IMG/VR virus record: IMGVR_UViG_3300009370_000001
Direction: 5' to 3' (one strand)
From: a virus
Lineage: Duplodnaviria; Caudoviricetes
Length of the DNA: 64,000 nt
In this document: positions 686-17,420 of the stretch, piece after piece
How positions within the stretch are numbered: the first letter of the stretch is position 1
Layout: every line of letters starts with the position of its first letter
Notes under the pieces: generated by a model
Database searches by the model: none
Told to the model about the DNA's origin: nothing
What the model saw: only the letters and a program-made list of their open reading frames with translations
Made by a program: the position numbers and the translations under genes

Positions 686-726
686 CAAAAACTTTACTTG
701 CAACTGATCCTCACGCGTGCTATATT
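682..726 (+). promoter_or_regulatory. sigma70-type promoter, partial version of the repeated element
   Basis: TTGACA 682, TTGCAA 698, 17 bp spacer, TG-C-TATATT 721. Confidence 0.65.
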
Positions 727-1637: not shown

Positions 1638-1907
1638 GTGGCAACTACTCACATTCCAGTCTACAAAATCGGGGATCTTGTAAAGTGTATTTATGATCTA
1701 TTCGATCACTACCAGTATTTCTGGGATCAAGAGCCCGCAAGTGGCTATCCTTTCCACGGGATTATCATAGATATCCAAGACAATATGCTGATGGACGAAG
1801 AGGTTCACGAATACGGTTATGAGAAACTTTATATTGTTCGCTGTTTCGATGGACACGTCAGATTTTTTGCTCACTGGGAAATGCGGCTCGTGTCAACATC
1901 TTCTTGA
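1638..1907 (+). CDS. KOW/SH3-like protein
   Basis: YKIGDLVK...GIIIDI...MRLVS. Confidence 0.65.
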   Translation: MATTHIPVYKIGDLVKCIYDLFDHYQYFWDQEPASGYPFHGIIIDIQDNMLMDEEVHEYGYEKLYIVRCFDGHVRFFAHWEMRLVSTSS

Positions 1908-1947
1908 CAACTTTGTGGTTGACACCGGTATTAGAAGATGCTATATT
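1893..1947 (+). promoter_or_regulatory. triple-TTGACA promoter element
   Basis: boxes at 1893 (TCAACA), 1904, 1919; TATATT 1942; would drive tRNA-Leu. Confidence 0.8.
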
Positions 1948-1955
1948 AAGAACAT

Positions 1956-2043
1956 GGCCGAGTGGTGGAATAGGTAGACACACCGGACTTAAAATCCGTT
2001 GATCATTATGATCGTGAGGGTTCAAGTCCCTCCTCGGCTACCA
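1956..2043 (+). tRNA. tRNA-Leu (anticodon TAA)
   Basis: GGCCGAG/CTCGGCT acceptor, CT-TAA-AA loop, long variable arm, GTTCAAGTC T-loop, encoded CCA. Confidence 0.95.
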
Positions 2044-2044
2044 C

Positions 2045-2099
2045 CTTACATCTTCTTGACAACTTTTGGCTTGACCACACAAACTGGGCATGCTATATT
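2045..2099 (+). promoter_or_regulatory. triple-TTGACA promoter element
   Basis: boxes at 2045 (CTTACA), 2056, 2071; TATATT 2094. Confidence 0.8.
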
Positions 2100-2156
2100 A
2101 TGAACACTGACCACATTAACATCTTCACCGACGAAGAAATCAACAAGGAGCTACGG

Positions 2157-2540
2157 ATGGGCACCCGCTCACACATTTATATTGAAACCGAACCAGGAAG
2201 ATTTCTGGGAACTTACTGTCAGTTTGACGGCTATCCTTCCCATATGTTTCCACAACTTGAAAAGCGCAGCCATGACGAAGTATATAGTATTATCGTCAGA
2301 GGACAAACACGCGGTGGCTTGGTAGGCATTGCTGCTACGCCGTCTTCTCCTATTGAATATCAAGATGGAATGGGGGAAGCATCTTTTCTTTTTAATCCGA
2401 CAGACTATCTCGAAAGCACCTGCGTTAACTACGTTTATGTAAAGCGACTGGATGGAACGGTACTATGGCGGGAAACCCGCAACGCTGAACCTGGAATCCC
2501 GATGCCCTGGTATAACACAGCACCCGAGGAGGAAGAATAA
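2157..2540 (+). CDS. phage hypothetical protein (MGTRS...DGYP type)
   Basis: AAGGAG RBS before ATG 2157; start corrected from the track. Confidence 0.65.
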   Translation: MGTRSHIYIETEPGRFLGTYCQFDGYPSHMFPQLEKRSHDEVYSIIVRGQTRGGLVGIAATPSSPIEYQDGMGEASFLFNPTDYLESTCVNYVYVKRLDGTVLWRETRNAEPGIPMPWYNTAPEEEE

Positions 2541-2541
2541 A

Positions 2542-2763
2542 ATGATGTTTGAAGCAGGCGAAAAAGTTATTGTAATGGCAGGCAGTGTTCATTCTCCGTC
2601 CTATCTACAGGGCGAGAGCGGAATGATCCTTGAAGTATCGGGATCATCTGATTATGTACCTGAACATTATACTATTAAGTTTGAGAAAGAGACTCATATT
2701 CTTTATGGGTCCGAACTACGGAGAGAAGAAAGTGAACAAGACGTGACGTATGAACTAAAATAA
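2542..2763 (+). CDS. KOW/SH3-like microprotein
   Basis: FEAGEKV...GMILEV...SELR; GGAGG RBS. Confidence 0.65.
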   Translation: MMFEAGEKVIVMAGSVHSPSYLQGESGMILEVSGSSDYVPEHYTIKFEKETHILYGSELRREESEQDVTYELK

Positions 2764-2769
2764 GTGGTT

Positions 2770-2924
2770 GGCCCCTGGAGTAATACTTAAGGACATTCGG
2801 GTTCAATGTCTACAATGAACCTTGTACCCATCTGGTGAGGTGAAACCTGCGAGGGTAATGCAGGAGTGGAAAGTAGGCTAACGAGTGGAAGACGCGGTGA
2901 AGACAGCGTTCCTCTCCAGGGGCC
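2770..2924 (+). ncRNA. candidate structured ncRNA of unknown family
   Basis: 11-bp closing stem 2770-2780/2914-2924, internal H-type pseudoknot and two hairpins in an intergenic gap. Confidence 0.55.
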
Positions 2925-2969
2925 TTTACATTGATTTGACTTGACAAAGAGAAGAAAATGAGATATATT
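2925..2969 (+). promoter_or_regulatory. sigma70 promoter with extra upstream boxes
   Basis: TTTACA 2925, TTGACT 2936, TTGACA 2941, 17 bp spacer, TATATT 2964. Confidence 0.7.
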
Positions 2970-2975
2970 ATACAT

Positions 2976-3182
2976 ATGAAAAAGGGTGACGTAGTTAAGT
3001 TTGTTTCTCCCCCAGGACTTCACCACTTGGATTCGGTGATGAACTGGAAACAGCAGAGTCCTGGTTTGGTCGTGGGGAGCAAAGACACTTCTCTCAAGAA
3101 GCGGTCTTATGAAGTGCTGTGGAAGAACGGCGAAAGAACTTTTGAATGGGAATCATATTTGGAGATTATTAGTAAAGCATGA
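2976..3182 (+). CDS. KOW/SH3-like microprotein, probably leaderless
   Basis: MKKGDVVK...GLVVG...LEIISKA; ATG 7 nt after the -10. Confidence 0.7.
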   Translation: MKKGDVVKFVSPPGLHHLDSVMNWKQQSPGLVVGSKDTSLKKRSYEVLWKNGERTFEWESYLEIISKA

Positions 3183-3358
3183 TTTATACAGTTATTTATA
3201 CAGATTACAAAAACGATTTGAAGTCCGAGGTAACGGATGGTCCGATGGACCGACCCGAAGCCTGGAAGGAAATGAAACGAGAATACGGCACAGTGCTGGC
3301 AATGGTGCCTGGGAGTCATCCCGTGTATACCAGCGGCTCAATGGAGCGAAAAGATTAG
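3179..3358 (+). CDS. hypothetical protein, 59 aa (below track cutoff)
   Basis: ATGA overlap with upstream stop; MIYTVIYTDYKND... Confidence 0.5.
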   Translation: MIYTVIYTDYKNDLKSEVTDGPMDRPEAWKEMKREYGTVLAMVPGSHPVYTSGSMERKD

Positions 3359-3418
3359 GAGACTGCTTACAGAGCATAAACAGTAAAGCTGGACGCTCAA
3401 AACATTAACCCCTATCCT

Positions 3419-3494
3419 GCGCCGGTAGCTCAGGGGTTAGAGCGTTGTTCTTATAAAGCAAATGTCGGTGGTTCAAGTCCACCCCGGCGTACCA
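3419..3494 (+). tRNA. tRNA-Ile (anticodon TAT)
   Basis: GCGCCGG/CCGGCGT acceptor, TTGTT-CT-TAT-AA-AGCAA anticodon arm, encoded CCA. Confidence 0.92.
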
Positions 3495-3522
3495 TTTTTT
3501 TATGACGAGGATATATACTAAT

Positions 3523-3711
3523 ATGAGCCATCACTATGGAGAATACTGGTCAAGCTGGAGCCACCAGCCTGCCACACCTAAAGAGCCTGAACTGCTTGAA
3601 GAGATTAAAACATTTCTTTTGACTCTCCATGAGAGTGATAAAGCTGCGGAGTTACTCCAAAAAATAGAGGCGGAAGCCGCCAAAGCGAATAAGCCTAAAA
3701 CTGATTTTTAA
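3523..3711 (+). CDS. hypothetical protein
   Basis: ORF track frame; start may be 3502 or 3523. Confidence 0.55.
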   Translation: MSHHYGEYWSSWSHQPATPKEPELLEEIKTFLLTLHESDKAAELLQKIEAEAAKANKPKTDF

Positions 3712-3935
3712 TGTTACCAGAGATTGACTGGCTTGAACACCAAATAGCGCAACTGCGAGAGCGGTGCGATCAGCTTGAGAAAGAAAACTTTGAGCTTAAG
3801 CGATGCATTGGCCGAGCTATCACAAACCTGGAACGAGATAATCAGCAGACCCGAGAATACATTGAGAAAGAAGAAACGAAAATCGTAGCGTTCGCCCCCA
3901 ACTTCAAGAAGCCGAAGTGGGAAACGCAAGATTAA
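3711..3935 (+). CDS. coiled-coil hypothetical protein
   Basis: heptad pattern; TAATG overlap. Confidence 0.6.
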   Translation: MLPEIDWLEHQIAQLRERCDQLEKENFELKRCIGRAITNLERDNQQTREYIEKEETKIVAFAPNFKKPKWETQD

Positions 3936-3946
3936 CCTTTCAATTT

Positions 3947-4022
3947 GGGTCCATAGCTCAATAGGTAGAGCATCGGACTTTTAATCCGCAGGTCGTGGGT
4001 TCGATTCCCACTGGACCCACCA
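3947..4022 (+). tRNA. tRNA-Lys (anticodon TTT)
   Basis: GGGTCCA/TGGACCC acceptor, CT-TTT-AA loop, encoded CCA. Confidence 0.95.
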
Positions 4023-4040
4023 TTTTTTTAAGAGAGAACA

Positions 4041-4217
4041 ATGAAACAAGAACACTATATTATTCAAGAATATAATCGCAAGACTCAAAAATATACGACG
4101 ATAGGTGAAGCTCAAGGGCTCACTGCCGACGCTGCCAAACTCAAGTTTATTGAGCAGACCAACTGGAAGCCGCGCCGCAACATTATCCTTTTCGTCCAGC
4201 ACCCCCTCTGTCGTTGA
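4041..4217 (+). CDS. hypothetical protein, 58 aa
   Basis: GAGAG RBS; stop lies inside the TTGACA box at 4214. Confidence 0.5.
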   Translation: MKQEHYIIQEYNRKTQKYTTIGEAQGLTADAAKLKFIEQTNWKPRRNIILFVQHPLCR

Positions 4218-4268
4218 CATTTACTTGACAACTTTGGGGTGGACAAGTGGCTTGCCCTATGCTATATT
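4214..4268 (+). promoter_or_regulatory. triple-TTGACA promoter element
   Basis: boxes at 4214, 4225, 4240 (TGGACA); TATATT 4263. Confidence 0.85.
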
Positions 4269-4274
4269 GTATGT

Positions 4275-4364
4275 ATGATCAGCAAATGGCTATGGATTCC
4301 GATTCTTCTGGTATACGGTTTCATCTTTGGAGCCAGCTACCTTCTAACCTCGTGGATGGTCTAA
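4275..4364 (+). CDS. 29-aa single-TM peptide, probably leaderless
   Basis: MISKWLWIPILLVYGFIFGASYLLTSWMV; ATG 7 nt after the -10; TAATG coupling. Confidence 0.55.
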   Translation: MISKWLWIPILLVYGFIFGASYLLTSWMV

Positions 4365-4561
4365 TGAGCCCAGGCAACCTTGTAATGATTAAGCGTGCTG
4401 CTATCGGCGTGCCTGCTGGCACCCTCGCACTATGCTTGAAGCGCGACGAGAAGCGCGGAGATTATGACGAAGGCCATGAGATTTGGACAGTCCAGCTTAT
4501 GCATGGGCAGCTACGGGGCATTGAGCGCCGGTATCTTGATATTGATTTGGAGATATTGTGA
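4364..4561 (+). CDS. KOW/SH3-like microprotein
   Basis: MSPGNLV...LEIL; start corrected from the track. Confidence 0.55.
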   Translation: MSPGNLVMIKRAAIGVPAGTLALCLKRDEKRGDYDEGHEIWTVQLMHGQLRGIERRYLDIDLEIL

Positions 4562-4761
4562 AAGTCGGTGACTTGGTAAAGAGCGCAGATCGTTTAGTTG
4601 GCAATCGGAATCGCATGCGCCTGGGAGTGATCGTAGAGGTAGACCCCGATAAAGCCGATCAACCGGGTTGTTTCGGGAGTTGTTTTATCCAGTGGATAGG
4701 CGATGCAGATTGGACATTCGTGTACGAAGAAGATATTGAGGTAATCAATGAAGGTCGGTGA
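4558..4761 (+). CDS. KOW/SH3-like microprotein
   Basis: MKVGDLVK...LGVIVEV...IEVINEGR. Confidence 0.75.
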   Translation: MKVGDLVKSADRLVGNRNRMRLGVIVEVDPDKADQPGCFGSCFIQWIGDADWTFVYEEDIEVINEGR

Positions 4762-4936
4762 TTTAGTAAGAAACCTTAACTCGGAAAGCGGTCTGCTTGG
4801 CGTTATTGTTTACTGGACAGATACCAAATGGCCCGACAACAATCAATGTACGAACCATCCAGTCGTACACTGGAACGACGGGCGCACAAGTTGGATTATG
4901 GCGCATCGTGTGGAGATTATAAATGCAAATCGGTGA
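4748..4936 (+). CDS. KOW/SH3-like microprotein
   Basis: MKVGDLVR...VEIINANR; 14-nt overlap. Confidence 0.75.
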   Translation: MKVGDLVRNLNSESGLLGVIVYWTDTKWPDNNQCTNHPVVHWNDGRTSWIMAHRVEIINANR

Positions 4937-5147
4937 CATTGTAAGGGTACATTGGGGCGCATGCGACTGGTCCGGCACGGAAGGTGTTGACTGGGGATAT
5001 GGCGTTGGCGTTGTGACGGGCGATATTGTGTGGTGGGAGAACACACGGCGTCTTGTGTCTCCGTGCGGCGACGTAGAGATTCTATTTCGCGGCGAGCGCG
5101 TAAACTATAACCTTGGTCGGCTGGAGATTGTAAATGAAAGTCGGTGA
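4923..5147 (+). CDS. KOW/SH3-like microprotein
   Basis: MQIGDIVR...LEIVNESR; 14-nt overlap. Confidence 0.75.
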   Translation: MQIGDIVRVHWGACDWSGTEGVDWGYGVGVVTGDIVWWENTRRLVSPCGDVEILFRGERVNYNLGRLEIVNESR

Positions 5148-5316
5148 CTTGGTGAGATATAAAGATTCACTCCGCGATGACGTGGGAGTTGTAATGAAAA
5201 TACAAACCGAGGGATCGTGTTCAATCTTTGGTCACACAGTGATCGTACAGACAACCGATGGGATTTGCCGTCAATATACCGAAAAGAATCTGGAGATTTT
5301 AAATGCAAGTCGGTGA
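5134..5316 (+). CDS. KOW/SH3-like microprotein
   Basis: MKVGDLVR...LEILNASR; 14-nt overlap. Confidence 0.75.
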   Translation: MKVGDLVRYKDSLRDDVGVVMKIQTEGSCSIFGHTVIVQTTDGICRQYTEKNLEILNASR

Positions 5317-5491
5317 CTTGGTAAAGATTGTGCAGTCAGCAATAGATCCGCTCAAGACTCCATTTTTGGAACAGGTCGGTGTGATTGTTAGAAAGACTAC
5401 ACTTGAATCAGAACAAAACGATTGGTATGATGTATTAACGCGGGATAGGATTCACTCATTCCGCGCAGACTATTTGGAGAAGATAAAATGA
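5303..5491 (+). CDS. KOW/SH3-like microprotein
   Basis: MQVGDLVK...YLEKIK; 14-nt overlap. Confidence 0.75.
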   Translation: MQVGDLVKIVQSAIDPLKTPFLEQVGVIVRKTTLESEQNDWYDVLTRDRIHSFRADYLEKIK

Positions 5492-5751
5492 AAGCAGGAG
5501 ATTTAGTAACACTTTCGGCGTATGCGAATGGGCTTCAAGCCCTCCAGCGGTGGTCAGACCGCTTCCGCCAATACCATAAAAAGCAGCCCCTGGTGGGATT
5601 GGTGATTAAAATCTCCCCGTCTCGGTGGGCGTGGGAAGGGATGCAGTATGAAGTACGATGGATGGAGCCGCATGGGCCGAAAGGTCGGGAGGGTAACTAC
5701 GGCGTACACACATTCAACCGCAAAGATTTGAAGTTTGTGAGTCGAGGATAG
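5488..5751 (+). CDS. KOW/SH3-like microprotein
   Basis: MKAGDLVT...GLVIKI...LKFVS. Confidence 0.72.
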   Translation: MKAGDLVTLSAYANGLQALQRWSDRFRQYHKKQPLVGLVIKISPSRWAWEGMQYEVRWMEPHGPKGREGNYGVHTFNRKDLKFVSRG

Positions 5752-6128
5752 TGGAAAATCTCACTCCAGAAAATTTTTTCCTGGTATTCCAGGTATTTAT
5801 CAAAGTTTTAGTTATATGGAGTCCCGTATTGTTTGGGACGTGGCTTTATATGTATTACACGCGCCCTAAAAAGCGCACAACCCAACGCAACAAAGGAAAG
5901 AAGATAATGAGAGCAGGCGAAGTATTTGAATGGCTGGATCAGGGACCAGCGGTATTGTTGGCACCATGTAAGATTGCCGATCCTATTCCCGTAGAAAAGA
6001 AGACCGAGTTTCTAAAAGATCCCGAAGGATTCTTGAAGGCATGGCCCAGCGAACAAGGCTGGACTATTAAACTTCTGGAAAGCGGCGACATCATCGACGT
6101 GCATGAAGACACGTTGACATACTCTTGA
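5751..6128 (+). CDS. hypothetical protein with N-terminal TM helix
   Basis: hydrophobic N-terminus; possible internal start at MRAGEV. Confidence 0.55.
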   Translation: MENLTPENFFLVFQVFIKVLVIWSPVLFGTWLYMYYTRPKKRTTQRNKGKKIMRAGEVFEWLDQGPAVLLAPCKIADPIPVEKKTEFLKDPEGFLKAWPSEQGWTIKLLESGDIIDVHEDTLTYS

Positions 6129-6168
6129 CAAGATTAACCTTGACTTACCGTCGCTGGCATGGTATATT
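6114..6168 (+). promoter_or_regulatory. triple-TTGACA promoter element
   Basis: boxes at 6114, 6125, 6140; TATATT 6163. Confidence 0.85.
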
Positions 6169-6174
6169 ATTAGC

Positions 6175-6306
6175 ATGAAAACGAAGAAAGTACCCAAGGC
6201 TCGTAACTGGCTCGCTGTCCATGCGTGGAATCGCAAGGGTGGAGCTATCCCTAACAAGAAGAAAGTTATGAATAAGAAGGCATGCAGGAAGAAGGTGCGA
6301 GCATGA
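6175..6306 (+). CDS. 43-aa very basic peptide, probably leaderless
   Basis: MKTKKVPKARNWLAVHAWNRKGGAIPNKKK...; ATG 7 nt after the -10; ATGA overlap with next gene. Confidence 0.6.
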   Translation: MKTKKVPKARNWLAVHAWNRKGGAIPNKKKVMNKKACRKKVRA

Positions 6307-6503
6307 GCAAATATGATTATGTTCCGTTTTTTGAGCGCGGCGATCTGGTAGAGATCAGCTTTGGCTATGGAGCTAAGAGCCTGGGCCTTTTTATGCATTA
6401 TGAAGGATGGGCTGACGATCTTCGCGCTAAGGTTTTTTGGGATGGTCAAGACCTTTCCACTCCGGTCGTGCAACTTACACTAATCAAGAGAGCAGCAGAA
6501 TGA
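6303..6503 (+). CDS. KOW/SH3-like microprotein
   Basis: FERGDLVE...LGLF...LTLIK. Confidence 0.65.
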   Translation: MSKYDYVPFFERGDLVEISFGYGAKSLGLFMHYEGWADDLRAKVFWDGQDLSTPVVQLTLIKRAAE

Positions 6504-6799
6504 ATATCTGGGTATTTATGGGACGCTGCGAAGGGGATCTATTCGCCACCACACACCTAACGGAGAAAGGCGCAGTCCTGGCGGCACTGGCGGATATTCT
6601 GGAATATCTGGGAATCGACAGCGACGAAGATGCGCGATCTAACCCCGAAGATGCCGATGCCCTCTTGCCCTGGGATTACGACGAGCTTAAAACATTTCCC
6701 ACCACGCAGCTATGGGAAGTCTACGCAGGATATCGTGAACATTTGTGGGATGATTTTTCGTATGAGATTGACATTCATCAGACACAGGTGACAGGATGA
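6500..6799 (+). CDS. acidic hypothetical protein
   Basis: D/E-rich; ATGA overlap; start corrected from the track. Confidence 0.6.
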   Translation: MNIWVFMGRCEGDLFATTHLTEKGAVLAALADILEYLGIDSDEDARSNPEDADALLPWDYDELKTFPTTQLWEVYAGYREHLWDDFSYEIDIHQTQVTG

Positions 6800-7083
6800 A
6801 ACTGGTTAGAGATAACATTCCCAAGATCATTAATGACTCGGGACGCGAATGTAAATATCATAAAGCTGACGAAGCTGAACATATAGCACGCCTCAAGGAT
6901 AAAATGGAGGAGGAGCTAACAGAGTTTATGCTTGAGCCATCTTGTGAAGAAGCAGCCGACATGCTGGAAGTGGTGCGCGGTTTGTGTCACATTCACGGCA
7001 TTGATTTTATGGATGCGCTGGATGCAGCCAACAATAAACATGCTCGACGTGGTGGCTTCGATGGAGGGATCGTATTGTGGTAA
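6796..7083 (+). CDS. MazG-like/phosphoribosyl-ATP pyrophosphohydrolase family protein
   Basis: KLVRDNIP and EELTEF...EEAADMLE motifs. Confidence 0.85.
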   Translation: MKLVRDNIPKIINDSGRECKYHKADEAEHIARLKDKMEEELTEFMLEPSCEEAADMLEVVRGLCHIHGIDFMDALDAANNKHARRGGFDGGIVLW

Positions 7084-7298
7084 AAGATACACTGCTGCAA
7101 GTCGGTGACTTGATAAGACATAAAACTTTGGGACACACCGGGTTGATTCTTCAAAGCGATCCGCGTTCCCTATGCAGTGAAATGATCCCAAGCTATTTTT
7201 TGATTGTGTGGAGCGATTGGCCTCGACTGCCCCAAGCAGATAACCAGACGTGGGCACTTGCAGATGATATAGAGGTGATTAATGCTGCAAGTAGGTGA
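7077..7298 (+). CDS. KOW/SH3-like microprotein
   Basis: LQVGDLIR...IEVINAASR. Confidence 0.72.
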   Translation: MVKDTLLQVGDLIRHKTLGHTGLILQSDPRSLCSEMIPSYFLIVWSDWPRLPQADNQTWALADDIEVINAASR

Positions 7299-7530
7299 TA
7301 TCGTTAAGTTTTTTGACTATGACTATGCCGCATTTCACCGCGATACGTCTGGTGAATGTTGGCGCATCGGTGTTGTGTCGGAGATCCGTCACGAGGTGTG
7401 GGATGAAGATTGGGATCCCGCATGTCTTCCGCTTGTCGTTGTCGTTCACGACGGACACAGCCAACCCCTCGTGATGCCAAACGAAAAAAATATCGGAACC
7501 TGGGTGGAGCTTATAAGTGCCCGTAAGTGA
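7282..7530 (+). CDS. KOW/SH3-like microprotein
   Basis: LQVGDIVK...IGVVSEI...VELIS. Confidence 0.72.
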   Translation: MLQVGDIVKFFDYDYAAFHRDTSGECWRIGVVSEIRHEVWDEDWDPACLPLVVVVHDGHSQPLVMPNEKNIGTWVELISARK

Positions 7531-7605
7531 TCGAATGTGGGTTATTGTTTCATTGGCGTTGGCCGTGACGGTGTGGTATTATGTGCGCTTCGGGGGAGGG
7601 GCATT

Positions 7606-7815
7606 ATGAAGGTCGGTGATTTGGTGCGACAGCGCGACGTTGGCATGCCTCGGCAGAATCGGAGAGTGGGCGTGGTGCGCGAGATCCGAAAGAAGGATCA
7701 CGCACGCTGGAAGGGTGATGGCTGGGATTCAGTCAGAGTATATTGGGGCGACAACCAGCGCATGAACGAGCGGTGGACTGTGCGCGGGTCATTAGAAGTT
7801 ATTGATGGCGCTTGA
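7606..7815 (+). CDS. KOW/SH3-like microprotein
   Basis: GGAGG RBS; MKVGDLVR...LEVID. Confidence 0.75.
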   Translation: MKVGDLVRQRDVGMPRQNRRVGVVREIRKKDHARWKGDGWDSVRVYWGDNQRMNERWTVRGSLEVIDGA

Positions 7816-7866
7816 CATTCTCTTTACAACATTAACCTTGACTACACCCCATTTACATGCTATATT
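7812..7866 (+). promoter_or_regulatory. triple-TTGACA promoter element
   Basis: boxes at 7812, 7823 (TTTACA), 7838; TATATT 7861. Confidence 0.85.
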
Positions 7867-7890
7867 ATAGGGGCAATCAGGAGAAAATAG

Positions 7891-8124
7891 ATGGCAGTTT
7901 ATGAAGCAACCGTCACCCGTGTGCGCTATGTTCACACAGTTATCGAGGTAGAAGCCGATAGCCCCGAGGAGGCACGAGAACAGGCACAACAAGTTATTGA
8001 TGCTGGCGTCTTTGGTCAACCAAATGTGACGCACCCTTATCCAGAACCCGTTTATCAATGGACAACGCACAACCGCGAAGGTGTGCTGGGTCACGACGAA
8101 TATGAGATTGTCGACATCGCTTGA
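7891..8124 (+). CDS. hypothetical protein (DpnD/PcfM-like beta hairpin, tentative)
   Basis: AGGAG RBS; IEVEADSPEEA. Confidence 0.65.
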   Translation: MAVYEATVTRVRYVHTVIEVEADSPEEAREQAQQVIDAGVFGQPNVTHPYPEPVYQWTTHNREGVLGHDEYEIVDIA

Positions 8125-8175
8125 CATTTACTTTACAACTTAACGATTGACAAACCCCCTGAAAAATGGTATATT
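8121..8175 (+). promoter_or_regulatory. triple-TTGACA promoter element
   Basis: boxes at 8121, 8132, 8147; TATATT 8170. Confidence 0.85.
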
Positions 8176-8202
8176 ATAGGGGTAATCAAGGAGAACACTA
8201 AC

Positions 8203-8553
8203 ATGGCCTATCTTCACAAACAAGACATCGTAATCATTCGCCAGGGCGGCAAGACCATCCAGGCTCGCGTGGTAGACATGCGTTTCCGGCGCTTTAGACG
8301 CGCCTGGAAGGACCGCAAGACCGGCGAGAACAAGTCACGCTGGAAGTCGGTGCCCTACGCAGTGTGCGAGGTATTTGCGGGGCTTCCCGTGGGGACCGAG
8401 TTTATTATTGCAGGCTACAAGCTGAAGAACGAAACCAAAGACGGCGAAAAGCTGCTGGTGCTGCGCGACAAGTATGCAGCCGAGTTTAATGGCGCGTGGG
8501 TAAACACCCTATTGGCCGAGAGCAAGAATATCCGTGCAAAGAGGAGTGCATAA
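8203..8553 (+). CDS. basic hypothetical protein
   Basis: AAGGAG RBS. Confidence 0.65.
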   Translation: MAYLHKQDIVIIRQGGKTIQARVVDMRFRRFRRAWKDRKTGENKSRWKSVPYAVCEVFAGLPVGTEFIIAGYKLKNETKDGEKLLVLRDKYAAEFNGAWVNTLLAESKNIRAKRSA

Positions 8554-8922: not shown

Positions 8923-9033
8923 GGAAGGATAACATGACAGGTATGGCAACATTCACATTTATTTGTATTGCGACGGGATTTAGCGCGTTTGCAGTTGCAG
9001 TAAAACGAGAGATTTGTATTAAAAGAGGAAAAA

Positions 9034-9282
9034 ATGAATACTAAAGTATGTAAACACTGCGATGAGATTTTTAATCTTGATTCGATTGCTAAAAAAGCAG
9101 CGGGTGGAAAGATTAACGAGTGCCCCGACTGCGTTGAGGAGTTGGGCACCGAGACTGCTGTAAAATATACAGGGCTTCAGATTGAAGAAACAGGATCGTT
9201 TGCGATCAGTCGGCATGCTACAGAAGCAGACCGGCAGAAACACATGAACGACCGGCTGAAAATGGATGACTTGTCAAAATGA
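9034..9282 (+). CDS. zinc-ribbon protein
   Basis: CKHC and CPDC pairs. Confidence 0.65.
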   Translation: MNTKVCKHCDEIFNLDSIAKKAAGGKINECPDCVEELGTETAVKYTGLQIEETGSFAISRHATEADRQKHMNDRLKMDDLSK

Positions 9283-9530
9283 AAATGACACTTGTTATTG
9301 ATAGTGAAGATTTGGATGGTATTAAAGATTCATTTAAGATCATCAAGATGATGAACGATAAATATAACACGCCAGCGCGTCAGTATAATGATCGTTCATT
9401 CGGAAAGATTCGCTACATTAAACTTCTGCGTAAATACGCGAAGTTTGCGGCTGATGAAGATTTTGACGTTGATTCGCTCAAAGCCGCTAAACGCTTTGCC
9501 GATGCGTTGTGGGCAGGCGATTTTGATTGA
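9279..9530 (+). CDS. hypothetical protein
   Basis: ATGA overlap; stop in the TTGACA box. Confidence 0.6.
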   Translation: MKMTLVIDSEDLDGIKDSFKIIKMMNDKYNTPARQYNDRSFGKIRYIKLLRKYAKFAADEDFDVDSLKAAKRFADALWAGDFD

Positions 9531-9581
9531 CATTTACTTGACATGATAATGATTGACAGCAACGCCTTTTCATGCTATATT
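9527..9581 (+). promoter_or_regulatory. triple-TTGACA promoter element (three perfect boxes)
   Basis: TTGACA at 9527, 9538, 9553; TATATT 9576. Confidence 0.88.
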
Positions 9582-9608
9582 ATAGGGGCAAATAAGGAGA
9601 GAACCACA

Positions 9609-9935
9609 ATGAGATTTGAGTTTACAGAAGAAGAAGTCGGCGCTTTGATCGAGGCACTCGGCGCGTGGATGGAGCAACCGAGCGAATGGGAAGGCGAGGA
9701 GTGGTTGCGACGGCAGGACATCGGCGCAGACCTTGACCTTGAGTTGCGCGAGGGGCTGGCCACTGGTGATGGAAACGTCGTCGATGATGCAGCCGAGGCT
9801 TTTATTCAGGCAGGCATCGACGCCCGCGAACAAGCTAAGGCAACATCCCGGGCCGCAACGCGCCGTGAACAAAGGCTGGCCGAACTGGCGAAAGGCACCA
9901 CGGCTACCCTCGCCAACGACCCCGCAGACTGGTAG
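9609..9935 (+). CDS. acidic helical hypothetical protein
   Basis: AAGGAG RBS; start corrected from the track. Confidence 0.65.
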   Translation: MRFEFTEEEVGALIEALGAWMEQPSEWEGEEWLRRQDIGADLDLELREGLATGDGNVVDDAAEAFIQAGIDAREQAKATSRAATRREQRLAELAKGTTATLANDPADW

Positions 9936-9941
9936 CATAAA

Positions 9942-10151
9942 ATGAAAGTCGGTGATTTGGTTAAATGGTCCTGGCACCTTGATACAGATTGGGCGACGAC
10001 GCATTTTATGGGCGTCATCGTGGGCTCCAAGCTATACAAGATGGCGAATGGGCTGGATAAATGTATCGTGCTGCAAGTATTGACCAGGAATGGCCAAACC
10101 ATCCAGGTCCGAGAAGACGAAGCAACCTTAAAGTTGATCGCCGCGTCTTGA
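9942..10151 (+). CDS. KOW/SH3-like microprotein
   Basis: MKVGDLVK...MGVIVG...LKLIA. Confidence 0.72.
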   Translation: MKVGDLVKWSWHLDTDWATTHFMGVIVGSKLYKMANGLDKCIVLQVLTRNGQTIQVREDEATLKLIAAS

Positions 10152-10202
10152 CATTCTCTTGACAACTTTCCTATTGACTCTCACCTATCCAGGTGGTATA
10201 AT
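10148..10202 (+). promoter_or_regulatory. triple-TTGACA promoter element
   Basis: boxes at 10148, 10159, 10174; TATAAT 10197. Confidence 0.88.
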
Positions 10203-10231
10203 GATGGCATATCAAGTAAGGAGATATATCA

Positions 10232-10453
10232 ATGGCTACTAACCTTCCCTATGTAATGACCTTTGCACAAGCGTGCGACTACTTCACCGACGAGATTCTG
10301 CCCTTGGTTCAAGAGCAGCATGAGCAAGACGGTGTACCCGATTGGCCCGCCCGATGCGAAACCTGGAACAACTGGACCGATAGCCTATGCAAAGACGGAC
10401 AGATCAGCGACTGGCAGTATATGAACTGGACACACCCGCCCTGCAACGGTTGA
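10232..10453 (+). CDS. acidic Trp-rich phage hypothetical protein
   Basis: AAGGAG RBS; WNNWTDSLCKDGQI. Confidence 0.65.
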   Translation: MATNLPYVMTFAQACDYFTDEILPLVQEQHEQDGVPDWPARCETWNNWTDSLCKDGQISDWQYMNWTHPPCNG

Positions 10454-10504
10454 CATTCACTTTACAACATTAACCTTGACATCCACACCCCAGCATGCTA
10501 TATT
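10450..10504 (+). promoter_or_regulatory. triple-TTGACA promoter element
   Basis: boxes at 10450, 10461, 10476; TATATT 10499. Confidence 0.88.
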
Positions 10505-10529
10505 GTATGCATAGAACGGAGAAAACTAT

Positions 10530-11318
10530 ATGGGAAACTATAACGGAACAGTCCACTGCGGGCATTGCTACCAACAAGGACACAACCGGAGATCGTGCCC
10601 GAGAAAACTGGAGAGCCTGCAACGGCAATACGCCGAGGCTAAGGAAAGCGGCAATGACAATAGCTATACACAGTATTACGCGCAGCAGATTGCAAAGATG
10701 ACCGGCACGAACCCCGAGACTGGGGCGACACGCAAGCGTCGGAATGAAAGCTATGGGCGCAAGTGTTCCTATTGCCGCGAGGGTGGCCATTCGCGCCGGA
10801 CTTGTCCAACGCTCAAAGAAGACCAGCGCAACTATCGCCGCATGTCGTCAGTAGTGCGGAAAGATATGCTGGCTCGCATGCAGGAGCATGGTTTCGGTGT
10901 CGGTTCCCTGGTAACGATGACAGCGAACCAGTGGAATCAAGCAGCAGGCGAGTATCAGGAGGTAAAGAACGCTTATCTGGTGACAAACATTAAGTGGGAC
11001 AGCATTGGACCCCACAACCAGCACGGCAATAGCTGTGTCAAAGTGATGTCGGTCAAAGACCCGAGCAATCAAGTCTGGATGACGATGCCCACGGAGGTCA
11101 GCGGAAGCGAAGAGAACCGCTACAGCCGCGCCCCGGAGATTGTTGGGGCTACAGCCCCGGAAAAGATTAACCCTCCGTCAGCGTGGACAGCAGGAGCCCG
11201 AGCAGAAGAAGGCGAGAACGCACCTTTTGAGAAGGGTGCCCAGCGTCAAGGATACTGGTGGCACAACGAGGGCAGCGTTCTCCTGGATCGCTGGGCAGGG
11301 ATCGAGTCAACCGAGTAG
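10530..11318 (+). CDS. protein with two CCHC zinc knuckles
   Basis: CGHCYQQGHNRRSC and CSYCREGGHSRRTC, both CX2CX4HX4C. Confidence 0.8.
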   Translation: MGNYNGTVHCGHCYQQGHNRRSCPRKLESLQRQYAEAKESGNDNSYTQYYAQQIAKMTGTNPETGATRKRRNESYGRKCSYCREGGHSRRTCPTLKEDQRNYRRMSSVVRKDMLARMQEHGFGVGSLVTMTANQWNQAAGEYQEVKNAYLVTNIKWDSIGPHNQHGNSCVKVMSVKDPSNQVWMTMPTEVSGSEENRYSRAPEIVGATAPEKINPPSAWTAGARAEEGENAPFEKGAQRQGYWWHNEGSVLLDRWAGIESTE

Positions 11319-11373
11319 TTGACATTCCCTTTACAACTTGGGGGTAGACAGCCCCCAGGTTCTATGGTATAAT
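11319..11373 (+). promoter_or_regulatory. triple-TTGACA promoter element with inverted repeat around the -35
   Basis: boxes at 11319, 11330, 11345 (TAGACA); TATAAT 11368; G-run/C-run flank the -35. Confidence 0.85.
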
Positions 11374-11375
11374 GC

Positions 11376-11561
11376 TTGCATACGATGGAGAAAGCGATGA
11401 GCCCCTGGATGACCGAGAGACTAAACACCTTGAAAACAGAGAACCAGCCCGAGCGTCCCGCGCTCCGCATCCCGACACCGCGCCCGGCACCGGCACGTCG
11501 CCCCGAGCGTCGGCCCGAACCCACTCGCGGCGTTATTATCGTTGACTTGACAATCAGTTGA
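11376..11561 (+). CDS. small Pro/Arg-rich protein
   Basis: ERPALRIPTPRP...RGVIIVDL; start uncertain. Confidence 0.5.
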   Translation: MHTMEKAMSPWMTERLNTLKTENQPERPALRIPTPRPAPARRPERRPEPTRGVIIVDLTIS

Positions 11562-11601
11562 CAACTTCCTTGTTGACAGACCTATTTACCCATGCTATAT
11601 T
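11547..11601 (+). promoter_or_regulatory. triple-TTGACA promoter element
   Basis: TTGACA at 11547, 11558, 11573 (plus TTGACT 11542); TATATT 11596. Confidence 0.88.
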
Positions 11602-11642
11602 ATTAGCGTAAGAAACAAAGAACCCCGAACCCGGAACCAATC

Positions 11643-12731
11643 ATGTCAGTAGACTTCAAGACCTTTCAAACCGTAGTAGCTCATATCCTCGATTACAAGT
11701 TTCCCGTGCTGGTGCGCGGTAGGCATGGCGTCGGCAAATCCGAGGTAGTGTATCAGATTGCTGCTGATCGCAACCTTCCGATTGTCGAGCGTCGTGCAAG
11801 CCAGATGACAGAGGGTGACTTGCTTGGTCTTCCCGATACCTGTGACACCGCTATCAGTGGGCGCAAGGCTACCACGTGGAACGCTCCAGATTGGCTTGTG
11901 ACGGCTTGTGAGCAACCCGTGGTACTCTTCCTCGATGAAGTGGACCGGGCAACGATGGAAGTCCGTCAGGGACTCTTTGAGTTGACCGACAGTCGCAAGA
12001 TCAACGGCTGGAAGCTGCACCCCGAAACCCTCATTGTCGCCGCTGTCAACGGTGGCGAGCATGGCGCACAATATCAGGTAGGAGAAATGGACCCTGCCGA
12101 GTTGGATCGCTGGACCGTGTTCGATGTCGAGCCTTCCGTAGAAGACTGGCTCACCTGGGGCAAGGACAATGTTAATGAAGTGCTGTGGGACTTCGTGAAC
12201 CACAACCGTCAACACCTTGAGCATCAGGGCGAGCATGAGCCGAACAAAGTTTATCCTTCTCGCCGTAGCTGGAAGCGGTTTAATGATACCGCTGTTCCCA
12301 CTGGCGCGTTTACCGAGGATGGACAGAACGGCGAGTTGCTGTATCAGCTTGCAACCGCCTTTGTCGGCTTTGAAGCCGCTGTAGCACTTAAGGACTTCGT
12401 TGAGAAGTATGAGTGGCAAGTGACGGTAGAGGATCTGCTTGACAACGGACAGATCGAGCGCACCGAGAAGTGGGGCATCAATGACCATGCTGCGATGATC
12501 GAGAAGCTGGACGCCTCCGGTGTCCTGGCTGAAACGCTCAACGAGACACAGGTTAGTAACCTTGCCACCTATTTCGTCTCGCTGCCCTCGGAAGTGGCCA
12601 TGAAGTTGTGGACCGTCCTGGGAGACACCGACAACATTGAAAATGTCGTAGCACTCCACAAGGCAGAATCGGCCTCTGGACAGAAGGTTAGTGAACACCT
12701 TGTGGAAATCCTGGGAGGCTCCCAGGAGTGA
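11643..12731 (+). CDS. MoxR-like AAA+ ATPase
   Basis: Walker A GRHGVGKS, Walker B LFLDEVDR, DPAELDRW. Confidence 0.9.
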   Translation: MSVDFKTFQTVVAHILDYKFPVLVRGRHGVGKSEVVYQIAADRNLPIVERRASQMTEGDLLGLPDTCDTAISGRKATTWNAPDWLVTACEQPVVLFLDEVDRATMEVRQGLFELTDSRKINGWKLHPETLIVAAVNGGEHGAQYQVGEMDPAELDRWTVFDVEPSVEDWLTWGKDNVNEVLWDFVNHNRQHLEHQGEHEPNKVYPSRRSWKRFNDTAVPTGAFTEDGQNGELLYQLATAFVGFEAAVALKDFVEKYEWQVTVEDLLDNGQIERTEKWGINDHAAMIEKLDASGVLAETLNETQVSNLATYFVSLPSEVAMKLWTVLGDTDNIENVVALHKAESASGQKVSEHLVEILGGSQE

Positions 12732-12937
12732 GGATCTTGAAGGCTGGCGACCTACTAATCAGGGAGCGCGATAAGCGCCCCTGTATCGTCTTGGAGGTCC
12801 AAGAGAGTACGAAACCCCAGTGGGGCACCCTGGACGCCAGCAGACGGCGATACAGGCTCTTTGAGAGCCATTCTGGAGTGTCCCGCTGGGTAGTCGATAC
12901 CGAGGTTGCCGTCAAATACACCCTAACAACCGATTGA
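12728..12937 (+). CDS. KOW/SH3-like microprotein
   Basis: LKAGDLL...CIVLEV; inserted between the AAA and VWA genes. Confidence 0.6.
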   Translation: MRILKAGDLLIRERDKRPCIVLEVQESTKPQWGTLDASRRRYRLFESHSGVSRWVVDTEVAVKYTLTTD

Positions 12938-12988
12938 CATTCACTTGACAACTTTTCCCTGGACAAACCTACGTACCCATGCTATATT
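12934..12988 (+). promoter_or_regulatory. triple-TTGACA promoter element
   Basis: boxes at 12934, 12945, 12960; TATATT 12983. Confidence 0.85.
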
Positions 12989-13013
12989 GTATGTGTAGAA
13001 AGGAAAGAACCCT

Positions 13014-14270
13014 ATGAGCGACGACAAACCCACTCCCTTTGACTTGAACAAGCACACGGCGCGGCTGCTTATGCGCGAGCCGTTTTTCGCTGGGCTGTCT
13101 CGGCGGATCGACAAGACCCCGACGACTGAGATCCCGACTGCCGGTGTTCGCATTAATCCCGAACGGGCACAGTTTGAGTTGATGTATAACCCTGACTTCA
13201 TGGCGAGCCTTAGCGACAAGCACCGACTTGCGATCTTGAAGCATGAGTTTTACCATATCATCTTTGAGCATGTGACACACCGCAAGCCTGCCGATGGCAT
13301 TAGCCGCCTGGACAACATTGCGATGGATCTGGCAATCAACGGCTTGCCCGACATGAAGACTAACCTTCCCAACGATGCCGAGCCAGGACCACCGACCGGA
13401 TCGGCTGGTGAGCCCATGAAGGCATGCATCCCCGGAGAAGGGCCATTCGCTCACTTGCCTTGTGAGAAGTCCTATGAGTGGTACAAGGCAGCACTCCAAG
13501 ACATGCAGAAAGAGAAGCCAGAAGGCGAGCCAGGGGAGCCAGGACAAGGCGAGCCCGGTGATGGCGATCCCTTCGGCGGCATGGATGCGCTGGACGATCA
13601 CGGCGAGTTTGGCGAGGGTCAAGGCACCGCAGACGAGATCGCTAAGGAACGTCTGAAGGAAGCGGTAAAGCAGGCAGCAGAGGAAGCCGAGAAGGCTAAT
13701 AACTGGGGCACTGTTTCAGGAAACACCCGGCGCGACATTATGGATCGCATCGCTACTAAGGTTGACTGGCGCAAGGTGTTGCGTTATTTCGTGAAGACCA
13801 CGCAACGCTCCGACAAGACCAGCACGCCGAGGAAACTGAACCGCAGATTTCCACGCATCCACGCAGGAAAGCGCGTCCGTCGTCACGCTCGCATTGCTAT
13901 CAGCATCGACCAGTCTGGATCGGTGGATGATAAAATGCTTCAAGCGTTCTTCTCCGAGTTGAACAAGTTGGCCGAGATTGCCGAGTTTACTGTTATCCCA
14001 TTCGATTCAGTAGTGGGCGAGGATAAGATTTATGTATGGAAGAAGGGTGCAACCCGCAGAACCGAGCGCGTTATGTGCGGCGGGACTTGCTTTAATGCTC
14101 CAACCAAGTACGTGAACGAACACGGATTCGATGGACATATTATCCTTACTGACCTGATGGCACCTAAGCCGATGGCGAGCAAGTGTCAACGCATGTGGAT
14201 GACGACTAAGGCATACGCGGCGCGTCCCTACTTCCAGACTAACGAGCGAGTCATCGCAATCGACAGTTGA
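13014..14270 (+). CDS. DUF2201-type metallopeptidase plus VWA-like domain protein
   Basis: HEFYH (HExxH), NIAMDLAIN, MIDAS-like IDQSGS, GGT, TD. Confidence 0.88.
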   Translation: MSDDKPTPFDLNKHTARLLMREPFFAGLSRRIDKTPTTEIPTAGVRINPERAQFELMYNPDFMASLSDKHRLAILKHEFYHIIFEHVTHRKPADGISRLDNIAMDLAINGLPDMKTNLPNDAEPGPPTGSAGEPMKACIPGEGPFAHLPCEKSYEWYKAALQDMQKEKPEGEPGEPGQGEPGDGDPFGGMDALDDHGEFGEGQGTADEIAKERLKEAVKQAAEEAEKANNWGTVSGNTRRDIMDRIATKVDWRKVLRYFVKTTQRSDKTSTPRKLNRRFPRIHAGKRVRRHARIAISIDQSGSVDDKMLQAFFSELNKLAEIAEFTVIPFDSVVGEDKIYVWKKGATRRTERVMCGGTCFNAPTKYVNEHGFDGHIILTDLMAPKPMASKCQRMWMTTKAYAARPYFQTNERVIAIDS

Positions 14271-14320
14271 CAAGCACTTGACATTTCGGGGTAGACAACC
14301 TGCCCCGAATATGTTATATT
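14267..14320 (+). promoter_or_regulatory. triple-TTGACA promoter element with hairpin
   Basis: boxes at 14267, 14278, 14292; TATATT 14315; TTCGGGG...CCCCGAA inverted repeat around the -35. Confidence 0.85.
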
Positions 14321-14348
14321 GCTATATACAAACAGGAGATCCCTACTT

Positions 14349-15158
14349 ATGGCTCGCACAACCTACGCCGACCGCTTGAAAGCCCTTATCACCAACCCCG
14401 CTATGTCTGCGCGTGACTGCCAGTTTGCAAGCAGCTTGCTTGCCTACTACGTCAAGCGCAAGTCGCTGACCAGTGGCCGCGCTCGCTGTGTGCGCGAGCT
14501 TGAGGCACGGTACAGCGCCGAGGCAGTAGCCGAGCGTGCAGCCCGCACCGCACCGCTAACGGCTCGATTGCAGGCGCTCACTGCCCGTGTGACCGAGGGT
14601 TCATGGGCTGGCGGGTTCGTGGAGTCTTTGACCGAGCAAGTGGCGTCAGGACGCAACCTAAGCCCACGCCAGATCGAGATCCTGGAGAAGATCGAGAGCG
14701 AGCATAGCGACGAGGCTATTAATGCTGCCGCTTCCTGGGATGCCGACTTCTCCGATGACATGCGCGACCGGCTGACCGTTGCGGCACGTTATTATCGTCG
14801 CACTGGCTACTTTACTAACCTTGTGGATCGTGCGTTGACCCCTGATGGCCAACCGACCGCATTTATTCCGACTGAAAAGCAGTATCGGAAGGTCACCGAA
14901 AACAAGTATGCACAGAAGGTATTGACCGCGCACTATGACGCGCCAAAGTACGCCACTGGCTCGATGGTGCAACTGCGCCCGAGTTGCGGCTATCTCGCAC
15001 GTTCCAAAGCAGGCGACAAGCCCTGTGTCGTTATCTCGACCACGGAGCCCATCGTGAGCGCGTGCAAGGGTGCAAAGATGTATCGGATCTTGCCCATCGG
15101 ATCCGCAACTATGATCACAATCGAGGAGCGTCACATTAAGAAGGCGCGAGGAGTATAA
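14349..15158 (+). CDS. hypothetical protein with C-terminal KOW-like segment
   Basis: AGGAG RBS; start corrected from the track; YATGSMV. Confidence 0.7.
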   Translation: MARTTYADRLKALITNPAMSARDCQFASSLLAYYVKRKSLTSGRARCVRELEARYSAEAVAERAARTAPLTARLQALTARVTEGSWAGGFVESLTEQVASGRNLSPRQIEILEKIESEHSDEAINAAASWDADFSDDMRDRLTVAARYYRRTGYFTNLVDRALTPDGQPTAFIPTEKQYRKVTENKYAQKVLTAHYDAPKYATGSMVQLRPSCGYLARSKAGDKPCVVISTTEPIVSACKGAKMYRILPIGSATMITIEERHIKKARGV

Positions 15159-15160
15159 AC

Positions 15161-15466
15161 ATGAAGAGAATCCTAACCAACAGTAAAGTGATCGAGGCAT
15201 GGCAGCGCGGAGAACGCGCCGCTAACCATCGTGGCACACTTCAATGTTACAGTGATGGCACGCTGTATAGCTACAACCTGCATATCGGCCAGCGCACACC
15301 GTCAGGAGTGTGCATTGTGGGCGATTACACGGCTCCTGGCGGGGGGTTCAAGTCAGTGACTACCTCGTGCCATGTCGGACGCGCCAAGCGCGTTCCTGGG
15401 GTCACTGTGATGCACCCGCTTGTGTGGGTCGATTCTCCGTTGAGTAACGAGGAAATCCCATTCTAA
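15161..15466 (+). CDS. phage hypothetical protein
   Basis: GAGGAG RBS. Confidence 0.65.
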   Translation: MKRILTNSKVIEAWQRGERAANHRGTLQCYSDGTLYSYNLHIGQRTPSGVCIVGDYTAPGGGFKSVTTSCHVGRAKRVPGVTVMHPLVWVDSPLSNEEIPF

Positions 15467-15479
15467 CCCGAGACAGATT

Positions 15480-15725
15480 ATGGAAGACAACAATATCATT
15501 AACCTTGTCGAAATCCTTGAGGAGAAGGAAAGACAGAAAGAGAGAGAAGAAGAAATGGAAAAGGCCGAGCTACGCGATCAACTGCAATGGGTGTTGCAGA
15601 AACTCCATGAGAAGAACATCACCTATCGAGCAGAAGACGAAGAAGAAATAGGGTTTGATGCTTATGAGCGAGTTCCTAAACGTAACTGGTTCCAGCGTTT
15701 TCTGGACCGCTTTCGATACGATTGA
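15480..15725 (+). CDS. charged hypothetical protein
   Basis: ORF track; stop in the TTGACA box. Confidence 0.6.
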   Translation: MEDNNIINLVEILEEKERQKEREEEMEKAELRDQLQWVLQKLHEKNITYRAEDEEEIGFDAYERVPKRNWFQRFLDRFRYD

Positions 15726-15776
15726 CACACACTTGACAACCTAAACCTTGACAGTCACCCCGAAAAGTGCTATATT
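15722..15776 (+). promoter_or_regulatory. triple-TTGACA promoter element (three perfect boxes)
   Basis: TTGACA at 15722, 15733, 15748; TATATT 15771. Confidence 0.88.
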
Positions 15777-15799
15777 GTATGCATACAACGGAGAGAACT

Positions 15800-15991: not shown

Positions 15992-15992
15992 A

Positions 15993-17406: not shown

Positions 17407-17420
17407 AAGAGGGAAGAGGA

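Follow-up and report, generated by a model that had tools for sequence, protein, structure and literature searches.

A conserved two-box module upstream of predicted early promoters in one genome block of uncultured marine T4-like phages

Introduction

What reads two extra copies of a -35 hexamer that lie upstream of a promoter already possessing one? The question is raised by a 64,000-nucleotide stretch of the IMG/VR virus record IMGVR_UViG_3300009370_000001 (here called the window, meaning that stretch at its full length), in which 14 predicted promoters carry TTGACA-like boxes at two fixed positions (boxes 1 and 2, together the two-box module) ahead of the -35 element (box 3). An original prediction, made from the letters alone, had taken boxes 1 and 2 for selected protein-binding sites that define an early regulon, and had offered as examples an extra contact for sigma region 4, a sink for RNA polymerase, or a site for an activator or repressor. 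The analysis reported here supports selection on the boxes and indicates that the promoters bearing them form a class apart, limited to one genomic block; it does not support the sigma and polymerase-sink examples.

The source of the window is an uncultured marine T4-like phage. T4-like phages are a main model of how viruses take over host transcription, with early promoters rich in upstream (UP) element DNA, Alt/Mod and AsiA/MotA as the known devices; in the last of these, the host sigma-70 polymerase is redirected through a sequence box upstream of the -10. The T4-type major capsid protein Gp23 (PF07068) is encoded by four complete IMG/VR genomes that bear the three-box pattern (185-204 kb), its closest cultured matches being just 34-45% identical, and searches among cultured phages at the near-DNA and protein levels found no close relative of the window. 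AsiA (PF09010) was not detected in the four complete relatives, and neither was the MotA C-terminal domain (PF09158), the MotA search having had no positive control.

Results and Discussion

Three-box promoters in the window

Searching the window for TTGACA-N5-TTKACA retrieved 12 matches, all on the + strand, where 0.03 would be expected by chance; none of 100 shuffles reached that number. Direct reading added two sites with a degenerate box 1, at 1893 and 2045, giving 14 copies (12 exact, 2 degenerate) of TTGACA-N5-TTKACA-N9-TNGAC-N17-TGnTATAWT on the + strand between 1893 and 15776. All the promoters that had originally been described are thereby recovered:

1893..1947, + strand: three-box promoter, degenerate box 1 TCAACA; -10 at 1942-1947; drives transfer RNA (tRNA)-Leu, 1956-2043
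2045..2099, + strand: three-box promoter, degenerate box 1 CTTACA, box 3 TTGACC; drives the open reading frame (ORF) 2100-2540
4214..4268, + strand: three-box promoter, box 3 TGGACA; box 1 supplies the TGA stop of ORF 4041-4217
6114..6168, + strand: three-box promoter; ORF 5751-6128 stops at the TGA in box 2
7812..7866, + strand: three-box promoter, box 2 TTTACA; -10 bracketed by a CCCC/GGGG inverted repeat
8121..8175, + strand: three-box promoter, box 2 TTTACA; -10 bracketed by a CCCC/GGGG inverted repeat
9527..9581, + strand: three-box promoter
10148..10202, + strand: three-box promoter, -10 TATAAT
10450..10504, + strand: three-box promoter; drives a 262-amino-acid protein with two CCHC zinc knuckles, 10530-11318
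11319..11373, + strand: three-box promoter, box 3 TAGACA; box 3 in the loop of a GGGGG/CCCCC hairpin; fold z = -3.95
11547..11601, + strand: three-box promoter; drives a MoxR-type AAA_5 ATPase, 11643-12731
12934..12988, + strand: three-box promoter, box 3 TGGACA; drives a DUF2201/VWA metallopeptidase-like gene, 13014-14270
14267..14320, + strand: three-box promoter, 8-nt gap between boxes 2 and 3, box 3 TAGACA; box 3 in the loop of a CGGGG/CCCCG hairpin; fold z = -3.6
15722..15776, + strand: three-box promoter, last of the block

At every one of these sites box 3 has the form T[TGA]GAC[ATC], with at most one mismatch in TTGAC, and is followed by 17 nt and then TGnTATA[AT]T, the -10 being TATATT or TATAAT with TGn directly 5' of it. 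A Shine-Dalgarno site and an ATG come 20-35 nt past the -10. In their sequence, with a -35, a 17-bp spacer, TGn and a -10, the 14 sites appear to be early promoters of the host sigma-70 type. The degenerate sites at 1893 and 2045 have a normal box 2 and a normal -10 despite their decayed box 1. Fifteen perfect extended -10 elements occur on the + strand of the first 20 kb, of which 14 belong to the three-box family and the fifteenth to a decayed copy of it (box 1 at 682, -10 at 721-726):

682..726, + strand: decayed copy, TTGACA-N5-TTTACT and a perfect TGCTATATT about 7 nt too close; without box 3

Boxes 1 and 2 are arranged head to tail at a distance of 11 bp in every site, a direct repeat with a period in the range of 10-11 bp. 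The gap between boxes 2 and 3 is 9 nt at 13 sites and 8 nt at 14267, in agreement with the earlier description of a fixed spacing that is 14 rather than 15 only once. It had also been claimed that the third box alone has a -10 partner, and this was borne out: when the sites were read directly, neither box 1 nor box 2 had a -10-like hexamer at promoter distance, and the position 17 nt past box 2, which falls just beyond box 3, holds no TATAAT-like hexamer.

Counted from the -10, boxes 1 and 2 span about -62 to -41, which is the zone of the UP element (about -40 to -60). The module itself, 22 bp long (cTTGACAttcnCTTGACAAc), does not have the A/T-rich A-tract consensus of UP elements, and runs of at least five A/T number 0.52 per three-box promoter versus 1.12 per single-box promoter. 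To the right of 18.5 kb, where only single-box promoters had been predicted, the six strong TTGACA-N17-TATAAT promoters (-35 at 40634, 40791, 48083, 48863, 53398 and 59940) indeed have a single box each, preceded by DNA of 66-84% A+T with no extra boxes.

The promoters of the three-box block are tandem and co-directional, with no room left for terminators, and the upstream ORF stops at the TGA of box 1 in eight cases and at the TGA of box 2 in two. Hairpins are found in 5 of the 14 promoters, the G/C hairpins being clear at 11319 and 14267 and weaker at 4214, 7812 and 8121; across all 14, RNA folding gave a mean z of -0.9 and no conserved structure was seen. The G+C content of the block (window 1900-17700) is 50.1%, versus 40.7% for 18500-64000. 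In the relative G003 the corresponding values are 45.4% for the three-box block and 42.0% for the remainder, with the G+C content climbing toward the block end that adjoins the C-tract element (see below).

The first two promoters flank the tRNA-Leu gene closely. The -10 of the promoter at 1893 ends 8 nt before the gene, placing the predicted start about 2 nt before the 5' end of the mature tRNA, and the promoter at 2045 begins 2 nt past the end of the gene.

Conservation of the upstream boxes

Selection statistics were computed on promoters anchored on box 3, TG and the -10 only, with the sites found by the search pattern itself excluded. At least 105 of the 189 anchored promoters carry both box 1 and box 2, 75 carry neither, and almost none are intermediate; because the 75 include a number of three-box promoters whose gap is 8 nt, the three-box type is in fact commoner than these counts suggest. 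Where the gene behind a three-box promoter had a homologue in another contig, the promoter of that homologue was also of the three-box type in 374 of 396 ordered pairs and was never intermediate, while in 20-22 ordered pairs homologous genes stand behind the other promoter class. The two-box module defines an all-or-none promoter class that is confined to one block of the genome.

Before homologous genes, identity is 0.85 for box 1, 0.86 for box 2 and 0.90 for the -10, versus only 0.36-0.38 for the spacers and 0.32 for the upstream coding DNA. The two-box module is thus under purifying selection about as strong as that on the -10. It keeps a set distance from the -35, departures of -1 or +10 bp being rare: among 375 promoters the gap between boxes 2 and 3 is 9 nt in 335 (89%), 8 nt in 25, 10 nt in 2, and 19 nt, one helical turn more, in 5 that come from two independent families. 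Since the spacers are near random while the boxes are conserved and their phase is fixed, the boxes and the phase must have been kept by selection rather than by recent copying.

The pattern of constraint within boxes 1 and 2 is not that of a -35 element. In the two upstream boxes A4, C5 and A6 reach 95-100%, T1 73-94% and G3 81-90%, position 1 also tolerating C and position 3 also tolerating T or A. Box 3, measured in a set not chosen by its own sequence, reads T100 T90 G99 A88 C87 with position 6 mostly T (49%) or A (27%), and its variants are of the TTGCAA type, which is the usual decay of a -35. The upstream boxes therefore mirror a real -35, having an invariant ACA and a looser TTG where the -35 has an invariant TTG and a free position 6. 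Their flanks are conserved as well, with a C before box 1 in 63% and before box 2 in 90%, and an A after box 2 in 83%.

Distribution among phages and cellular genomes

Across IMG/VR the three-box pattern was found at 105 loci comprising 177 sites, with the same -10 geometry. A genome-wide motif scan had been proposed as a check, and in every near-complete genome examined it gave one cluster on one strand. There are six such genomes, of 172-204 kb. A mismatch-tolerant scan placed the three-box promoters of the window, too, in one block on one strand; in the whole G003 genome it found 12-14 three-box promoters on one strand within 18 kb and about 20 strong single-box promoters outside the cluster. 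The exact pattern formed one cluster on one strand in each of G001, G002, G004, G007 and G008, and a reversed control pattern had zero matches in these five.

Scanning 596 Gb of cellular genomes gave 12 matches, approximately the level of chance. The matches that looked real lie on short pieces within a binned pseudo-chromosome with 100-N spacers, or on a 3.6-kb contig. A WOR-3 "chromosome" with three matches was considered as a host or prophage and rejected, as it is a string of short contigs with 100-N spacers between them and lacks Gp23, pointing to mis-binned phage pieces. The cellular matches being chance or mis-binned phage DNA, the layout belongs to the phage clade and not to cells.

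The WOR-3 entry, CP070664.1 (L118, L124, L125), is a public metagenome-assembled genome labelled "WOR-3 bacterium chromosome" that holds pieces of the phage clade. Another mis-binned phage piece, L121, sits in a Bacteroidetes UBA bin and is not evidence for a host.

A sigma-like phage protein and arrays of TTGACA boxes

Four of the motif-bearing genomes (G002, G003, G004 and G008) encode an 86-amino-acid protein in which four conserved cysteines are followed by a domain resembling region 4.2 of primary sigma factors. It matches Pfam Sigma70_r4 (E 7e-11 and 2e-8). With a profile of 26 family members, the solved structures that match best come, with few exceptions, from primary sigma factors (RpoD/SigA), the match falling in their TTGACA-reading helix, and the recognition helix SFAR[IV]KQIE is nearly invariant across these 26 diverse members; the sigma-70 residues R584 and E585 are replaced in the protein by F/L and A/S. 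When a model of the protein (predicted local distance difference test score 83.7) was searched with Foldseek, nothing matched at E <= 0.001. IMG/VR contains more than 230 relatives of the family, and cultured phages yielded none. In G003 the gene lies downstream of single-box promoters. The protein was not found in the 64-kb window, and it went undetected, even at E <= 5, in the complete G001 and the 95%-complete G007, where the boxes are identical. Among the 30-54 kb contigs that bear the gene just one has the three-box pattern, these contigs being just 16-30% complete. Family members were located as follows:

L113, 1593-1853, - strand: 86-amino-acid family member
L128, 1833-2093, + strand: 86-amino-acid family member
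L129, 1986-2231, + strand: 86-amino-acid family member
L211: 86-amino-acid family member

The gene is always preceded by an ORF of 108-112 amino acids, which by eye resembles a ribbon-helix-helix protein.

TTGACA boxes also occur apart from promoters. In several related contigs, TTGACA/TGTCAA is repeated 3-6 times at an 11-12 bp period, with no -10, next to a conserved C-tract element:

18360..18400 of the window, + strand: C-tract element, clade-conserved; inside the ORF-free stretch 17718-18520
L007, 4350-4800, - strand: iteron-like TTGACA array
L020, 950-1950, - strand: iteron-like TTGACA array
L012, 4550-5400, + strand: iteron-like TTGACA array
L041, L075 and L091: iteron-like TTGACA arrays

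The C-tract element occurs once per contig in about 30 relatives, directly after the three-box block in G003; in the window, the ORF-free stretch of about 800 bp that contains it closes the block. Possible roles are those of an origin, an RNA gene or a control hub. The copy in the window has no TTGACA arrays. By their sequence, the arrays without a -10 would fit a dedicated reader of the boxes, to which they lend circumstantial support.

The element is composed of two C6 tracts followed by TACCCGGAAT and TATGTC, and a second conserved block lies about 60 nt downstream of it.

What reads the two-box module

We favour the view that the two-box module is a tandem site for a DNA-binding factor other than the sigma region 4 bound at the -35, and put its probability at roughly 55%. 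A reader other than sigma region 4 is suggested because the constraint on the boxes is the mirror image of that on a -35, because their flanks are conserved, and because they are arranged head to tail with an 11-bp period. Each promoter heads a compact gene cassette in a hypervariable early block, the order of the cassette being the stop codon of the preceding gene, the promoter, a short conserved leader, the Shine-Dalgarno site and the ATG. The module takes the place of the usual A/T-rich, UP-like DNA at about -62 to -41. Under the favoured reading, two tandem copies of a sequence-specific protein would dock on the two hexamers and, sitting beside the polymerase, would act on the entire block at once, switching or tuning it. 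As the core promoters are already near consensus, a timed shut-off or conditional modulation seems likelier than simple activation. The protein may be a host factor, or an early or injected protein of the phage.

Several observations weigh against a separate factor. We identified no binding protein for boxes 1 and 2, and the proteins encoded behind the three-box promoters, which are mostly ORFans together with the AAA_5 ATPase, the DUF2201/VWA protein and the CCHC protein, give no clue to a DNA-binding reader. The four complete genomes (G001-G004) encode no winged-helix Trans_reg_C protein, and the sigma-4.2-like candidate is missing in two of the six near-complete genomes although their boxes are unchanged. 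Weak -35 elements are not offset by better copies of boxes 1 and 2 (Fisher p = 0.49), so nothing here points to the logic of an activator. The loci that supplied the promoter sets had been located by the motif, and some bias may remain in the selection statistics despite the exclusion described above. Finally, the hexamer equals the -35 consensus of sigma-70, making the polymerase the simplest guess, one that is disfavoured only.

In that simplest reading the polymerase itself would recognize the boxes, either as landing pads for sigma region 4 (an antenna or sink) or through its alpha C-terminal domains in place of the UP contact. The boxes stand exactly in the UP-element zone, where the other strong promoters of the phage have A/T-rich DNA, and the layout is kept across differing gene content, including genomes without the sigma-4-like protein, which favours a universal host reader. 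Yet what alpha contacts is the minor groove of A/T-rich DNA and not TTGACA; holoenzymes spaced by 11 and 15 bp would be expected from the known polymerase footprint to clash, so that they could not bind together and a non-productive complex would compete, which tells against the proposed sink; and the extra contact for sigma region 4 is hard to reconcile with the mirrored conservation and with flanks foreign to the -35 consensus. Cellular genomes, moreover, do not use the layout. Early promoters of T4 are known to stack polymerase contacts (PMC2988021), and on balance we consider a polymerase reader possible but unlikely. Less likely still is that the free-standing sigma-4.2-like protein of the phage, made early, binds both the upstream boxes and the TTGACA arrays and so comes to silence or boost the three-box block, thereby switching a whole set of immediate-early promoters. 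Its Sigma70_r4 match, primary-sigma relatives, near-invariant recognition helix, presence in four of the genomes and wide occurrence in IMG/VR would suit such a role, as would its position behind single-box promoters in G003; its absence from our searches of the window, G001 and G007, the replaced R584 and E585, and the lack of a significant fold match make it a doubtful reader. If it did have this role, it would amount to sigma mimicry that serves to time transcription in T4-like phages devoid of AsiA and MotA.

Two further explanations dispense with a protein that binds the module as DNA. The boxes might have no binding role and be cassette junctions for recombination, of the kind described for promoter-early stem-loop (PeSL) elements, while also supplying the stop codon of the preceding gene. 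The upstream ORF does end at the box 1 TGA in 81 of 168 promoters and at the box 2 TGA in 18 (99 of 168 in total), the block consists of small ORFans, homologous genes sometimes stand behind the other promoter class, and PeSL-mediated shuffling is documented in T4-like phages (PMC2839356, PMC4122927). We nevertheless hold this to be very improbable, given that conservation driven by homology would have preserved the spacers, which are near random, and that the three box TGAs (offsets 1, 12 and 27) cover just two reading frames; the 11/15 bp phasing, the +10 bp variant, the invariant ACA and the all-or-none classes would all be left unexplained. The least probable of the explanations, to which we give only a slight chance, is that the module functions at the RNA level, in transcripts that read through it, where it might be processed or bound by a protein. 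With tandem co-directional promoters, no room for terminators and a hairpin in only five of 14 copies, the module probably is transcribed from upstream; however, its sequence equals a consensus recognized in DNA, its helical phase relative to the -35 is fixed, its folds show no conserved structure, and the first promoter of the block carries it too.

Relation to known promoter systems

A close resemblance among the systems compared is with the PeSL cassettes of the T4-type phages RB49/phi1, T4/PST and KVP40/nt-1 (PMC2839356, PMC4122927). There, as here, a near-consensus sigma-70 early promoter is repeated between small ORFans in a hyperplastic region of a T4-like genome, the element reaches from the upstream stop codon to the Shine-Dalgarno site and ATG of the next gene, and some copies have G-run/C-run hairpins over the -35 or -10. 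PeSLs differ in having an A/T-rich UP-type part, whose place is taken here by the two boxes, and a stem-loop, found here in just about 5 of 14 copies. A/T-rich UP-type DNA lies upstream both of PeSLs and of T4 early promoters (PMC2839356, PMC4122927, PMC2988021). The T4 "UP/-35/TGn/-10" early promoters (PMC2988021) are, like the present ones, very strong, combining a -35, TGn and a -10 with a conserved upstream region at -40 to -60, but that region is A/T-rich UP DNA and not boxes, and AsiA and the MotA C-terminal domain went undetected in the relatives of the window. We conclude that the cassettes are a real and conserved form of PeSL-like early promoter that has a new upstream two-box module and makes up a separate promoter class in one block.

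In its internal layout the module resembles tandem sites of the OmpR/PhoB type, which have two head-to-tail hexamers with an 11-bp period, directly upstream of the -35 or abutting it, and an invariant ACA core. The PhoP box of B. subtilis is TT(A/T/C)ACA-N5-TT(A/T/C)ACA and the pho box of E. coli is TGTCA-N6-TGTCA; read on the reverse strand, the two-box module is also TGTCA-N6-TGTCA. Classic pho boxes, however, replace the -35, and orientation and position differ. A reader of this type would have to be encoded by the host, because the four complete genomes have no Trans_reg_C protein. The AsiA/MotA system differs in that the MotA box, at -30, stands in for the -35 and depends on AsiA, whereas here the -35 is kept and the boxes lie further upstream. 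A "phage-specific promoter" of phage pf16 with tandem TCAACA (PMC5587285) was considered as a parallel and rejected: in the genome it abuts the ATG and is no upstream promoter module.

An abundant ocean clade of phages in which AsiA and MotA were not detected thus marks one early block with a different, conserved upstream module. Should the module prove to be a site for a regulator, it would represent a new early sub-regulon and a new control step; it would also provide a 22-bp sequence tag with which to find the gene block in metagenomes, and a bait for the binding protein, perhaps for the host too. If it is read by the polymerase, it would be a new way to strengthen a promoter.

Neighbouring genes and other features

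All genes of the window lie on the + strand, and small ORFans are numerous among them. The window shows no enrichment of the T4 late motif TATAAATA (6 observed versus 4.3 expected).

The predicted early protein at 10530-11318 (+ strand, 262 amino acids) contains a pair of CCHC zinc knuckles of the retroviral type (CX2CX4HX4C) and could be assigned to no known family. The AAA_5 ATPase and DUF2201/VWA genes adjoin each other (11643-14270, + strand), each with its own three-box promoter; the label "HNH endonuclease" that PHROGs gives to the DUF2201/VWA gene does not fit its Pfam domains. The phage also has a full-length transfer-messenger RNA at 41159-41580 of the window (+ strand; Rfam RF00023, 112.5 bits, E 4e-43), for which ARAGORN predicts the tag peptide ANNNNNFESVRLAA.

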